64,000 nt of DNA from Eledone cirrhosa (GCA_964016885.1 OZ024745.1:1426001-1490000); one strand, 5' to 3'; counted from the stretch's first letter, positions 5,941 to 45,560 are shown. Made by a program: numbers and translations. Notes: generated by a model not told the origin, from the sequence alone.

Positions 5941-6103
5941 ATATATATATATATATATATATATATAAACGGAAAAAATGAAACGAAATTTCATTTCCCA
6001 CTCTTAGTACGGCCGTTACTTAAATATAAGTATGTACACGTACATACATATATGTATTTCCGTTTATCGTTTTCGGTGCACCCGGCCGATTAACCCACTC
6101 AAT

Positions 6104-6111
6104 ATGCAAAT
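6104..6111 (+). promoter_or_regulatory. Octamer motif ATGCAAAT upstream of hammerhead
   Basis: Exact octamer at an equivalent position in related elements (22479, 41413, 41881, 42349 on the minus strand); function inferred. Confidence 0.4.
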
Positions 6112-6178
6112 TGGGCTACTCAGCCGTTAATATGCATAAGGTAAGTATATAGGTTCAATAATCTGACAGGAAGGTATA

Positions 6179-6219
6179 CGTTGCTGACGATAGCTAATAA
6201 GCTTGAAACTAGTACAGCG
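6179..6219 (+). ncRNA. Minimal type I hammerhead ribozyme
   Basis: CGTTG-CTGACGA-tAGCT(aata)AGCTt-GAAAC-TA-GTA^CAGCG; palindromic stem III ACTAGT. Confidence 0.85.
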
Positions 6220-7512
6220 TTCCTTTGTCTGTTGAACAAACGAGCAACGATGGTTGCTGGACACTACGGCGTAATACGGGATGTTTGTTTACAAACACAC
6301 CGAGCATTATAATAAATGTTCGGTGAATCCATACGTACATATATATATGTGTGCATGTATGTATATATATATACATACTACTGTACGTCTGTATACATAT
6401 ATGTATGTACGTGTACATACTTATATATATATATATATACTATATATTTTATTAAGGCTAAACAGTGAGTGTTGTTACTGTGGAGTTTCGCCTACATATG
6501 ACAGTGTCATCAGAGAAGAATTAACATTTAATAGCAGAGACAGTACAAATAAGAGAGGGAGAGAGAGGGGGTAGTGGGAGGGGTGGGGAGTGTAGACAGA
6601 TCTATAGATAGATAGTGTAGATAGAGTGAGAGAGAGAGAGAGAGAGAGGGGGTAGTGGGAGGGGTGGGGAGTGTAGACAGATCTATAGATAGATAGTGTA
6701 GATAGAGTGAGAGAGATAGAGAGAGAGAGAGGGGGTAGTGGGAGGGGTGGGGAGTGTAGACAGATCTATAGATAGATAGTGTAGATAGAGTGAGAGAGAG
6801 AGAAGTGTAGATGTGTTTCTCCCTCTATTTCACTCACTTCCCCTCCCACTTTCTCTATACCATCTTTCTATCTGTCACATTCTCTCTTATATTTTATATC
6901 TTCTTTGTCTTTCCTCCCTCCCCCTCCTCCTCTTTGTTTATTCCCTCCTTTCACTTATTTTATACTCCCCCTCCTACTTCTGGAATCTGACCTTCACATC
7001 CTCTCACTGTTTCTCCTATTACCACACAGTCATTTCTCCCCCTCTCTCATTAATACTACCCCCATCTTTAACTCTCCTCCTCTCTCATTACTATTACCTA
7101 CCTCTCTCTAACTCACCCCTCTCTCATTTCTATTACCTACCTCTTTTTAACTCTTCCCCTCTCTCATTACTATTACCTACTTCTCTTTAACTCTCCCTCT
7201 CAACTGTATTACCTACCTCTCTTTAATTCTCCCCCTCTCTCAATAATATTATCTACTTCTCTCTAACTCTCCCCCTCTCTCAATAATATTACCTACCTCT
7301 CTCACATCTCGCCCCTCTCAATACTATTACCTACCTCCTCTCCCCCTCTCGCATTACTATTACCTACCTCTCTCTCCCCTCTCTCATTTATTACCTACCT
7401 CCTCTCCCCCTCTCTATATAAGTTGCTCTCTTCATGCCGCTCTAACATCAATGGAACCTGCTTTGTATTTTTTGTCTTTTCTGTTTTACCTTCCAGCTTG
7501 TGATTCGCCATA

Positions 7513-9790
7513 TTGGATGGTTGTGACAGTGGTATTGGTGGTGGTGGTGGTGGTGGTGGTGGTGGTGATGGTATTGGTGGTGGTGGTGGTGGTGGTGGTG
7601 GTGAGGGTAGTGGTGGTGGTGGTAGTGGTGCTAGTGGTGTTGGTGGTGGTGGTGGTAGTGGTGGTAGTGGTGTTGGTGGTGGTGGTGGTGAGGGTAGTGG
7701 TGGTGGTGGTAGTGGTGGTAGTGGTGGTGGTGGTGGTGGTGATGGTATTGGTGGTGGTGAGGGTGGTAATGGTGGTAGTGGTATTGGTGGTGGTGGTGGT
7801 GGTGAGGGTGGTGATGGTGGTGGTGGTGAGGGTGGTGGTGGTGAGGGTGGTGATGGTAGTGGTGGTGGTAGTGGTGGTAGTGGTGGTAGTGGTGTTGGTG
7901 TTGGTGGTGGTGGTGGTAGTGGGGGTAGTGGTGGTAGTGGTGGTGGTGGTGGTGAGGGTGGTATTGGTGGTGGTGGTGGTGAGGGTGGTATTGGTGGTAG
8001 TGGTGGTGGTGGTGAGGGTGGTGATGGTAGTGGTGGTAGTGGTGGTGGTGGTGGTGATGGTAGTGGTGGTAGTGGTGGTGGTAGTGGTATTGGTGGTGGT
8101 GGTGGTGAGGGTGGTGATGGTAGTGGTGGTAGTGGTGGTGGTGGTGAGGGTGGTGATGGTAGTGGTGGTGGTGGTGGTGGTGGTGAGGGTGGTGATGGTA
8201 GTGGTGGTAGTGGTGGTGGTGGTGGTGATGGTGAGGGTGGTGATGGTAGTGGTGGTAGTGGTGGTGGTGGTGGTAGTGGTGAGGGTGGTGATGGTAGTGG
8301 TGGTAGTGGTGGTGGTGGTGGTGATGGTAGTGGTGGTAGTGGTGGTGGTAGTGGTATTGGTGGTGGTGGTGGTGAGGGTGGTGATGGTAGTGGTGGTAGT
8401 GGTGGTGGTGGTGAGGGTGGTGATGGTAGTGGTGGTGGTGGTGGTGGTGGTGAGGGTGGTGATGGTAGTGGTGGTAGTGGTGGTGGTGTTGGTGGTGGTG
8501 AGGGTGGTGATGGTAGTGGTGGTAGTGGTGGTGGTGGTGGTGATGGTAGTGGTGGTAGTGGTGGTGGTAGTGGTATTGGTGGTGGTGGTGGTGAGGGTGG
8601 TGATGGTAGTGGTGGTAGTGGTGGTGGTGGTGAGGGTGGTGATGGTAGTGGTGGTGGTGGTGGTGGTGGTGAGGGTGGTGATGGTAGTGGTGGTAGTGGT
8701 GGTGGTAGTGGTGGTGGTGGTGGTGAGGGTGATGATGGTAGTGGTGGTAGTGGTGGTGGTGTTGTTGGTGGTGGTAGTGGTGGTAGTGGTGTTGGTGGTG
8801 ATGGTGGTGGTGAGGGTGGTGGTGGTAGTGGTGGTAGTGGTGGTGGTGTTGGTGGTGGTGGTGGTGGTGAGGGTGGTGGTGGTAGTGGTGGTAGTGGTGG
8901 TGTTGGTGGTGGTGGTTGTGGTGGTAGTGGTAGTGGTGGTAGTGGTAGTGGTAGTGGTGGTATTGGTTGTGGTGGTGGTAGTGGTGGTAGTGCTAGTGGT
9001 GGTGGTGGTGGTAGTGGTGGTGGTGGTATTGGTTGTGGTAGTGGTAGTATTGGTGGTGGTGGTGGTGGTGGTGGTGGTGGTGGTAGTAGTGGTGGTTATA
9101 GTAGTGGTGGTGGTGGTATTGGTGGTGGTGGTGGTGGTGGTATTGGTGGTAGTGGTGGTGGTGGCGGTGGTGGTAGTGGTGGTAGTGGTGGTGGTGGTAG
9201 TGGTGGTAGTGGTGGTAGTGGTACTGGTGGTGGTGGTTGTATTGGTTGTGGTGGTTATAGTAGTGGTGGTGGTGGTGGTAATGGTTGTGGTGGTGGCGGT
9301 GGTGGTATTGGTTGTGGTGGTGGTAGTAGTAGTGGTGGTAGTGGTAGTGGTGGTGGTGGTAGTGGTGGTGGTGGTTGTATTGGTTGTGGTGGTGGTAGTG
9401 GTGGTAGTGGTGGTGGTGGTGGTAGTGGTGGTGGTGGTGGTAGTGGTAGTGGTGGTGGTGGTGGTAGTGGTGGAGGTGGTATTGGTTGTGGTGGTGGTGG
9501 TGGTGGTAGTGGTGGTGATGGTAGTGGTGGTGGTAGTAGTGGTGGTGGTGGTGTTAGTGGTGGTGGTGGTAGTGGTTGTGGTGGTGGTAGTGGTTGTAGT
9601 GGTGGTAGTGTTGTTTGTGATGGTGGTAGTGGTGGTGGTAGTGGCGGTGTTGGATGGTTGTGACAGTAGAATTGGTGGTGGTGGTGTTAGTGGTTATAGT
9701 GGTGGTGTTAGTGGTGGTTAGAATGGTGGTTATAGTAGTGGTGGTGGTGGTATTGGTGGTGGTGGTGGTGGTGGTGTTAGTGATGGTGGA
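7513..9790 (+). repeat. Degenerate (GGT)n trinucleotide array
   Basis: ~2.2 kb of GGT with AGT/GAG/GAT/ATT/TGT variants and internal block duplications. Confidence 0.95.
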
Positions 9791-10624
9791 CTACAGCTTG
9801 CCTTTTCATTTGTTGAGTTAGTTTGATGTCTGTCATCATTTATCTGAAAAGAAATGGTAATCAGGACAAGTTAGAAAAAGGTTGTCTGGGAATCAGTATC
9901 GCAGTGATGATGACGTCATATCTGATGGCGACCTCTTCACCAATGGGGTCCCAGCACTGCAACATCGCTGGAAGAAGTGTGTGGACCACAAGGAGGACTA
10001 TGTTGAAAAATAAACCTCGTTTAGTCACATTCCACGAGAGTATCTTGGTCAGCCTATGAACCTTTCAGTCGAGTATATAAGTCTCCCGAACAGCTTAATT
10101 ATAGCCATTGTTTATTTTGGGAACTATTAATATGGTGGGTTCAATTTTTGTCCGTTGCTGTGATTGAATTTTGTTAGAGCGTCCAGGATGTTGTCTAGAT
10201 GATAATAGAAACATTTGATAATCACCTCTTTCTCACCGAAATATCAAAGAAAATTCTATAATTCTCCTGAAAATCAGTTACTGGGTAATATGTTAGAGCG
10301 TTCTGTAGTCAATCAAATACATCGGAGAGGAGAAAGTATGCAATCTAATCAGCGTATAAGATTAAGATAAAAAGCACGAGGTTAAAGGTTATCCTAACAC
10401 AAAGTAGAAGATAGGAAATCAAGAGCAAATACACATTGGTTATTTGTTGATTGGTTATTCCAGGAAATAGTTTTACATATGGTTTATTAAAATAGGAAAA
10501 CTGTCGACGTTAAAAATGGCTGACAGACTCTAAAATATTTCCTCAGGTCGATAAATATAAAAGTTAGGACTGATTCGTTTGCGTGTTCCTCCTTTTGTTT
10601 GTTTCTGATATATTTACTATAACG

Positions 10625-44816: not shown

Positions 44817-44891
44817 TGAGTTGATATGGAGGGTCTGTGGTTTTTCTCACATCAGATGTGAGAAAAACCACAGACCCTCCATCTCAACTCA

Positions 44892-44929
44892 CCTTTTGAA
44901 AAGCAGAAGAACTGCGAAACCGGTAAAGG
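44892..44929 (+). ncRNA. Minimal hammerhead, U3:A8 variant core
   Basis: CCTT-TTGAAAA-GCAG(aagaa)CTGC-GAAAC-CG-GTA^AAGG; palindromic stem III ACCGGT. Confidence 0.72.
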
Positions 44930-45019
44930 AACCAAATAAATATATATATTTTTTTTAAAAATAAGACTTCAGTTGCATTTTCGATTTCATCTTTTTTTCT
45001 TTATATATATATATATATA

Positions 45020-45117
45020 CAGGGTGTCGCAAAAATGTATTCACACTTCAACAGCATTCTTACAAATATTGCCTGTACAAGTAATCAAAGTGTGTATACA
45101 TCTTTTGGGACACCGTA
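45020..45117. mobile_element. ~100-bp Tc1/mariner-like MITE
   Basis: TA|CAGGGTGTCGCAAAAATGTATTCACACTT ... AAGTGTGTATACATCTTTTGGGACACCGTA|TA imperfect TIRs inside (TA)n. Confidence 0.7.
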
Positions 45118-45135
45118 TATATATATATATATATA

Positions 45136-45560
45136 TAACGAAGGAAAAGTGGTAAGGAACCAGGTGGACCATAACGCAGCAAACTACTCAATACTTAGGG
45201 TAGTAGAGTGGGTAATAGGAACGAGTAGGACACCGACGGCTGAGCTCAAGCCGTTTCGACGGCTAATTCTAGTCCAGAATTAGCCGTCGAAACGGCTTGA
45301 GCTCAGCCGTCGGGGTCTTACTCGTTCCTATATATATATATATATATATATATATATATATATATATATATATATATATATATAAGGACACATGTATGTG
45401 TGTATTTATACACCACACACACACACACACACACACACACATATATATATATATATAGGAACCGGTTAGACCGGTTCCTATTACCCACTCTACTACCCCA
45501 AGTATTGAGTACTTTGGTGCGTTATGGTCCACCTGGTTCCTTACCACATTTCCTTCGTTA
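45136..45560. mobile_element. Fold-back element(s) centred on a hammerhead stem II, plus a second hairpin-capped fragment
   Basis: Hairpin centre AGTCC at 45271-45275; the right arm reads GAAAC-GGC(ttgagctca)GCC-GTC^GGGGTC; 45457-45560 mirrors 45136-45222 and starts with GGAACCGG(ttaga)CCGGTTCC. Confidence 0.7.

Follow-up and report, generated by a model that had tools for sequence, protein, structure and literature searches.

Penelope-like elements (PLEs) have been described with inverted copies and one-sided tails (PMC8557442), and Hydra-1_Obim of Octopus bimaculoides combines a (TA)n preference with a hammerhead ribozyme (supplement of PMC8557442); here and below, statements on published work refer to the portions of each source covered. 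A PLE protein nicks and extends both target strands, with reverse transcription beginning from a pair of internal RNA sites that set the tail (PMC11167929), and both U3-A8 cores and opposite-strand hammerhead pairs have been reported (PMC4209133). Metazoan retrozymes are known as well, with PLEs as strong candidates for their mobiliser (PMC7229834), and a preprint builds the PLE-retrozyme case on co-occurrence and on likeness of pseudo-long terminal repeats (pLTRs), with no mollusc among its 35 species (10.64898/2026.07.22.740005). An annotation of O. vulgaris lists 30 recently active Penelope families, with ribozymes unmentioned in the parts covered (PMC13282606). Here we analyzed a stretch of 64,000 nucleotides from Eledone cirrhosa (GCA_964016885.1, OZ024745.1:1426001-1490000; G000:C5:1426001-1490000 of the 3.0-Gb assembly in our numbering), called the window at its full length. 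We read the region, with a probability of roughly 0.8, as a pile-up in TA microsatellites of coding PLE copies and stubs (Hydra and Neptune clades) together with retrozymes that bear the same footprint and were likely copied in trans by Hydra-clade reverse transcriptase (RT)/endonuclease proteins.

A structural descriptor for type I hammerheads (core CNGANGA or UUGANAA, stems I-III, NUH) detected 15 motifs in the window, every one at a position listed in an earlier note that had claimed about 16, while 20 block-wise dinucleotide shuffles of 5967-45560 gave one match in all, or 0.05 per shuffle. The sixteenth motif, near 29981 (core 30034, minus strand), fails the descriptor through a change of U16.1 to G and reads as a point-mutated copy that is predicted to be inactive; the palindromic helix III and the AUA site are kept in 17 of the 19 copies of its family (F) that were read. 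The family G motif near 31594 carries U4A in the window copy, with U4 present in all 16 other copies printed. Eight stem types were distinguished (A1, A2, B, E, F, G, Hy1 and D), in line with the earlier count of at least seven, with A1 and A2 being 81% alike and A and B 65%. When ten motifs were aligned, both partners had changed in 10 of 14 pairs, a covariation score reached in none of 500 shuffles, the structure having been derived from the same sequences, which favours this result; the covarying features include the helix III palindrome and the change of C3-G8 to U3-A8. The fold of the B monomer is far stronger than that of shuffled sequences (z = -10.2). Among the 150 of 219 Rfam matches listed, only the two B motifs matched a hammerhead model (HH9, 38.6 bits, gathering threshold 52), with the others being mostly microsatellite matches to miRNA models. 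On the descriptor counts and the covariation, we take the hammerhead motifs of the window to be real. A degenerate CUGAUGA...GAAAC motif, which failed the descriptor, was also observed beside (TA)n at 6441-6552 (minus strand), with kin pieces in three other loci (L246, L197 and L013).

Eleven of the 16 motifs lie in non-coding tandem units (A, B, E, F and G), three in the pLTRs of the coding element Hy1 and two in the stub of family D. The non-coding units, one of them interrupted by a sequence resembling a short interspersed element (SINE), are the following.

5968..6421, plus strand: copy of retrozyme A1, a main arm with an inverted short tailed arm (5968-6057, minus); core 6184, predicted cleavage after 6214.
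22128..23130, no single strand: retrozyme B, a 466-nt unit in two arms joined head to head, with (TA)n on both sides; cores 22386 (minus) and 22798 (plus).
22128-22716, minus strand: left arm of B, tail-less.
22714-23130, plus strand: right arm of B, with a 74-nt tail.
28250..28632, minus strand: retrozyme E, 464-nt unit, 5′-truncated; core 28397, predicted cleavage after 28328.
29933..30891, minus strand: F, 5′-truncated copy of a non-coding unit of ~1.95 kb with a SINE-like insert; core 30034, U16.1G.
31151..31843, plus strand: retrozyme G, 1.3 copies of a 543-nt unit with a hairpin helix III; core 31601 (U4A here).
40308..40770, plus strand: copy of retrozyme A1, with an inverted short arm at 40308-40449; core 40523.
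41053..42794, minus strand: array of retrozyme A2, 3.7 copies of a 468-nt unit; cores 41332, 41800, 42268 and 42738; 3′ end in (TA)n.

The A, B, E and G units (428-543 nt; F ~1.95 kb) loop back to their own 3′ ends with no open reading frame (ORF) between, A1 being a non-coding tandem unit of 428-447 nt, and tandem A, B, E and G carry one type I hammerhead per unit. The longest ATG frames in the non-coding units are 50-74 aa (123 aa in the stretch containing F), and a tblastn comparison of these units with the Hydra and Neptune proteins gave nothing below E 0.1. By unit length, motif count and non-coding status, A, B, E and G classify as non-LTR (long terminal repeat) retrozymes, and F, whose unit exceeds the length criterion of 150-1000 nt for retrozymes, is filed as retrozyme-like only. 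Tandem motifs of E were seen in one of 20 loci, with partial tandems in several, and the 40 best genome matches of B are 100% identical over 247 nt. The earlier statement that most motifs lie in short non-coding elements bounded by (TA)n thus stands for the non-coding status of 11 of 16 and for the 3′ ends in (TA)n, but not for the five motifs in coding PLEs, nor for the 5′ ends of A2, which adjoins a 27-bp satellite, and of G, which likewise is not in (TA)n.

Further hammerhead units were observed around these families. A B array elsewhere in the genome (L301, G000:C1:375634700-375644000) holds 19 monomers in a 3-4-mer higher-order repeat and looks like a retrozyme turning into satellite DNA. 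Two loci (L156:280-3400 and L309) show an array of 11 motifs with a 310-nt hammerhead unit that is absent from the window, and another (L146) a 522-nt hammerhead unit. A TA-flanked stub of 66 nt at 28127-28192, whose longer copies (L150, L208 and L181) have an upstream minimal hammerhead-like motif, is probably the 3′ end of one more family. The SINE-like repeat, which may resemble an octopus SINE, occurs at 25992-26200 and at 30277-30472.

The coding side of the region is made up of the elements below, in which UTR stands for untranslated region.

4363..5939, minus strand: Hy2, 5′-truncated ORF of a second Hydra-clade PLE family, ~50% aa identity to the Hy1 RT; adjoins (TA)14 at 5940-5967.
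32591..35644, minus strand: left arm of Hy1, inverted and 5′-truncated, with a 164-nt tail at its end, in (TA)n; core 32837.
35671..40077, plus strand: right arm of Hy1, with pLTR (core 35826), ORF, 1.5-kb 3′ UTR and pLTR (core 39997); tail-less end in (TA)n.
36115..38565, plus strand: Hydra-clade PLE ORF with RT and C-terminal GIY-YIG-type endonuclease; RWR, DKT, YRDD, CxCX5C and CxH, no CCHH.
40795..40972, no single strand: inverted 3′-end stub of HyC, a coding Hydra family, cut within its hammerhead; missed by the earlier note.
44707..45001, no single strand: D, palindromic two-arm stub of a coding Neptune-type PLE, with U3-A8 hammerheads; cores 44812 (minus) and 44896 (plus).
45138-45328 and 45457-45560, no single strand: two HyC 3′-end stubs, likewise cut within the hammerhead, each inverted, with a one-sided 82-nt tail and (TA)n between them; also missed earlier.

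On the motif set given in Craig et al. 2021, Hy1 (the ORF at 36115) is assigned to the Hydra clade, with RWR at 39, DKT at 124, YRDD at aa 355 and VIY..YVG at aa 698 of the translated stretch, the linker CNCRANRTC and CQH (CxCX5C, CxH) present and CCHH absent; this assignment, like that of the parent of D to Neptune, rests on motifs, and Hydra-1_Obim was compared by eye. Hy1 carries all the Hydra traits tested, namely the pLTR hammerhead, the (TA)n insertion, the inverted copy and the tail. No Pfam family was returned for the Hydra ORFs Hy1 and Hy2, and a protein search yielded 94 full-length relatives of 29-40% identity with uninformative names. Three codons of the late CxxC motif are gone from both window arms, so the endonuclease of this copy is probably defective; the codons are present in 29 of 29 other Hy1 matches and the motif is intact in 28 of the 29. 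Elsewhere in the genome Hy1 appears young and intact, as 36 of its 150 best genomic matches lie in 832-aa open frames. HyC continues upstream into a Hydra ORF and its hammerhead core is of the U3-A8 type, HyX has at least 39 further copies that are 100% identical over 280 nt, and HyZ is 73% identical to Hy1 at the DNA level. In place of the one autonomous Penelope proposed earlier, the coding PLEs here read as many Hydra families plus Neptune, next to an ORF 36115 copy that lacks part of an endonuclease motif.

The motifs at 44779 and 44892 belong to D. Long copies of D extend across a 3′ UTR to an ORF that has DKG, a CX2-5CxxC linker and CCHH, and Neptune traits including the C-terminal endonuclease were read in a broken ORF upstream of D (L346), so that D reads as a 5′-truncated stub of a Neptune-type PLE and not as a non-coding family. 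Its one-sided tail of ~62 nt was found in 29 of 30 loci. D as a fixed-centre miniature inverted-repeat transposable element (MITE) was ruled out by unselected copies with other centres and by the long parents, the fixed centre of the first 30 loci being a product of the query used. With the tail oriented to the right, 19 of 30 have A as their central base and the other 11 have T, and the D stubs (L001-L030, L196-L198 and L261) end near one short stretch ~40-60 nt upstream of the core, which would act as a strong stop giving near-identical palindromes.

For D, as for C (HyC), the short hammerhead elements are 5′-truncated 3′ ends of coding PLEs, both extending upstream into Neptune and Hydra ORFs, respectively, and most single minimal hammerheads have been explained as truncated PLEs (Cervera and de la Pena 2014, PMC4209133). 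Extended to all short hammerhead elements, with no independent families left, this explanation is highly improbable: the A, B, E and G units (430-545 nt) and F return to their own 3′ ends free of ORFs, their ATG frames are short, and they lack matches to the Hydra and Neptune proteins at the tblastn level given above. For A, B and G the sequences have refuted it already.

The retrozymes and the coding PLEs were then compared by their insertion footprint, using the best-scoring genomic matches of each family. In 14 of 14 chosen Hy1 inverted pairs the arms lie head to head with TA-rich runs outside, and the tail is on exactly one side in 13 of them, the remaining pair (L267) showing it only as a detached piece. 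Among ten B arrays, taken from multi-hit loci, the tail is one-sided in all ten and a long inverted arm is present in nine; among 19 other G loci, nine are inverted and tailed on a single side, and A1 has an inverted arm in up to 16 of 30 loci, a count that includes two duplicate loci and possible internal palindromes. The 3′ ends of E, F and G fall within (TA)n in 19 of 20 loci for each. Of 11 measurable modal ends, 10 overlap the TA run by 3-5 nt (UA microhomology) compared with 2-15% of the positions across these reference sequences, with the tail-less end of B as the sole exception; E yielded no ends for this count, A2 was obscured by internal TA, and the D tail end is without read-through. 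Within one Hy1 insertion the two arms diverge by 0.02-1.2%, compared with 2.08% between loci, and private variants are often common to both, so that the arms would come from one donor or have been homogenised later. A simple fold-back of the first arm as the source of the second was rejected, as either arm may be the longer and only one is tailed. Taken together, retrozymes A, B and G show the footprint of PLEs: their arms lie head to head, only one end is tailed, the 3′ ends sit in (TA)n, and the microhomology to UA spans 3-5 nt.

Spread of the non-coding units at the DNA level, as satellite or TA-targeting MITE, or by retroposition through long interspersed elements (LINEs), with the inverted form being secondary, would fit the higher-order pattern of the 19-monomer B array, which is typical of DNA-level expansion, as well as the MITE-like look of the short TA-flanked palindromes and the RTE/CR1-like LINE fragments of the window. 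Against this, the point where the arms join differs among loci, whereas both outer ends stay constant and are unequal to each other, which is not the form of terminal inverted repeats; the copies are dispersed across many chromosomes, and their footprint equals that of coding PLEs. Such spread is accordingly rated improbable, and for the C and D palindromes a TA-targeting MITE or DNA transposon was rejected on varying centres, unequal ends and longer copies that enter PLE ORFs. PLE-type mobilisation into (TA)n, as the earlier note had proposed, is supported by the footprint and by the TA bias of a genome sample.

This sample consisted of eighty 10-kb regions (0.8 Mb), evenly stepped and blind except for one shifted 0.5 Mb from a known B array, with contigs represented not exactly in proportion. 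It contains 60 motifs, whereas three shuffles gave 0, 1 and 1; the density is 75 per Mb (bootstrap 41-120), in 16 flank clusters, which suggests a genome total of ~2.2 × 10^5 hammerheads (1.2-3.6 × 10^5). Of 47 terminal motifs, 40 are followed by (TA)5 at most 250 nt downstream, compared with 23% of sites drawn at random, and 26 have an inverted partner. The window is ~5 times denser than the sample, and at least four motifs also occur in 5 of the 80 regions. By family the clusters hold HyC 33, D 10, A 10, B 3 and F 3, with none for Hy1, E and G, and Hydra-like ORFs of 29-84% identity were found in 11 of the 80 regions. In axolotl as many as 120,000 retrozyme copies have been reported and in mussel ~5,000, with descriptors that differ from ours (PMC7229834).

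As to the enzyme, the earlier note had named the protein family of ORF 36115 as the driver. Hy1 as the specific driver of all non-coding families would be in keeping with its youth and its intact frames elsewhere, with its identical footprint and with one locus that joins G to its relative HyZ. Yet the Hy1 pLTR occurs in 0 of the 80 sampled regions (HyC 23, D 9), no junction joins Hy1 to a retrozyme beside 19 Hy1-Hy1 junctions among 128 of the same-family head-to-head type, Hy1 and the retrozymes have no sequence in common, and the window copy lacks part of its CxxC motif; we consider this account unlikely. Three junctions of a retrozyme with a Hydra element were found without a TA spacer (B-HyX, G-HyZ and A2-HyY). 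At the first (L376) the right arm begins as tailed B and passes into HyX RT sequence across a 4-nt microhomology, the left arm is tail-less HyX, and both parts are nearly identical to their families; at the second (L377) a tail-less G arm joins a tailed HyZ arm. These mixed insertions suggest Hydra families other than that of ORF 36115, and we infer that the best candidate drivers are young Hydra families, HyX among them, with no special place for Hy1. The junctions are leads to partners and not proof, because a deletion at insertion could produce the same picture. Three other candidates were dropped: G-NepD for a nested SINE-like piece in the reference, NepD-Hy1 for falling on an internal TA tract of D, and Hy163-HyC for joining two coding elements. 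Partner identification by sequence likeness was also tried and gave no true match.

Several points weigh against copying of the retrozymes by Hydra-clade proteins. When the retrozymes were compared with 104 coding 3′ regions, none matched the pLTR of a coding element, the apparent matches being adjacent or nested insertions, whereas 24 of 57 Xenopus families match known elements in the literature covered. E has inverted arms in 0 of 20 loci and tails in 1 of 20, and the family loci, as best-scoring matches, are skewed toward young, long copies. The mixed junctions number 3 against the 128 same-family ones, could be insertion-associated deletions, and at A2-HyY (L378) neither arm is tailed. Neptune elements, with the same footprint, could be the driver instead, and Poseidon PAc of Anolis primes without homology at ATT sites in vitro, in contrast to the 3-5 nt (TA)n overlap here (PMC11167929).

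Copying in trans by a Hydra-clade protein would proceed in a few steps. The PLE protein would cut both (TA)n strands, each cut 3′ end would pair, at either of two internal RNA sites that are fixed and 60-170 nt apart, with a UA stretch of 3-5 nt and prime cDNA, and the two 5′-truncated cDNAs would be joined head to head, leaving one arm tailed and the other tail-less. The template would be a circular or uncleaved tandem RNA, because the arms span several monomers, and from the palindrome in helix III cleavage is predicted to occur in dimers. The (TA)n left on both sides would attract the next insertion. Variant patterns in the ten B arrays favoured neither rolling circle nor tandem transcript, and 5′ ends at the hammerhead cleavage site were rejected for B, the site being unit position 238 and the ends scattered from 5 to 390. 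More tentatively, and somewhat short of even odds, this may be among the densest hammerhead systems known, in which active retrozymes without PLE kinship are loaded into the two-ended RT complexes of Hydra elements like their own mRNA, with telomerase-like priming over 3-5 nt of (TA)n/UA, and in which insertions of the B-HyX type name the partner enzyme. Such mixed insertions are a possible retrozyme counterpart of U6-L1 chimeras.

Other features of the surroundings are LINE-type ORF fragments at 23347-24447, 24668-25471 and 31857-32490 (weak RVT_1 match; C2H2 zinc fingers) and large satellites at 14542-20566 (27 bp), 42795-43631 (27 bp) and 46136-64000 (37 bp, 18 kb to the window end). Between TA runs lie a 29-nt unit in direct and inverted repeats (25473-25668), with no match in the loci compared, and a 96-nt element with short terminal inverted repeats (45020-45115), which has one relative (L158) and resembles a Tc1/mariner-type MITE. 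The flank of one locus (L347:2091-3550) contains integrase-like and RT-like frames of an LTR retrotransposon.

The mover of animal retrozymes has hitherto been argued from co-occurrence and sequence likeness, and here the insertion scars match those of PLEs. B, with dozens of identical copies, the equally young HyX, a simple (TA)n target and two mapped start sites form a matched test set. Many short TA-flanked palindromes in such genomes, easily taken for MITEs or unknown repeats, would be PLE stubs, and hammerhead retroelements may be a larger share of the genome than repeat annotations show.

The system is largely of a known kind, i.e., Hydra and Neptune PLEs plus retrozymes, with PLE-driven retrozymes and TA-targeting hammerhead Hydra PLEs already in print; this analysis adds the evidence from insertion footprints, candidate pairs of partners, the microhomology to UA and the genome-wide numbers. 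The earlier suggestion of an uncatalogued system does not hold for the Hydra side, given the catalogued Octopus bimaculoides element, and is kept for cephalopod retrozymes, on which, as on PLE tails or inversions in retrozymes and on numbers of this size, no paper was found in a search that had most subscription journals, Repbase and Dfam outside it. Like the metazoan non-LTR retrozymes (PMC7229834; 10.64898/2026.07.22.740005), the units here are non-coding, low-GC and tandem, with one type I hammerhead each and a proposed PLE mobilisation; they differ in head-to-head arrays, one-sided tails and (TA)n ends, which the portions covered do not describe, in that no pLTR homologue was found among the coding 3′ regions compared, and in the ~1.95 kb of F, the published texts being without cephalopods in those portions. 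Hydra PLEs (PMC8557442) agree with Hy1 in the RWK-type motif, DKT, CxCX5C, CxH, the absence of CCHH and the C-terminal endonuclease, as well as in the pLTR hammerhead, (TA)n insertion, inverted 5′-truncated copy and one-sided tail, whereas the Hy1 unit is ~4.2 kb with its 1.5-kb 3′ UTR against generally <3 kb, the tails are 60-170 nt against 30-40, the core here is CCGAAGA and many young families lie side by side. The non-autonomous Chlamys elements such as MRC1 (PMC8557442) are likewise non-coding PLE passengers with pLTRs and head-to-tail arrays, but are algal, without canonical hammerheads, and have 3′ sequence in common with their autonomous partners. The minimal PLE hammerheads (PMC4209133) are alike in the palindromic helix III, the U3-A8 core (D, HyC), the opposite-strand pairs and the many truncated copies, with ~2 × 10^5 estimated here against 4,000-9,000 for coelacanth and Xenopus, the descriptors being different. 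Poseidon PAc of Anolis (Frangieh et al. 2024, PMC11167929) likewise has two internal RT starts that set the tail and both strands cut and extended, and its insertion is independent of hammerhead cleavage, just as the 5′ ends of B are unclustered at the cleavage site.

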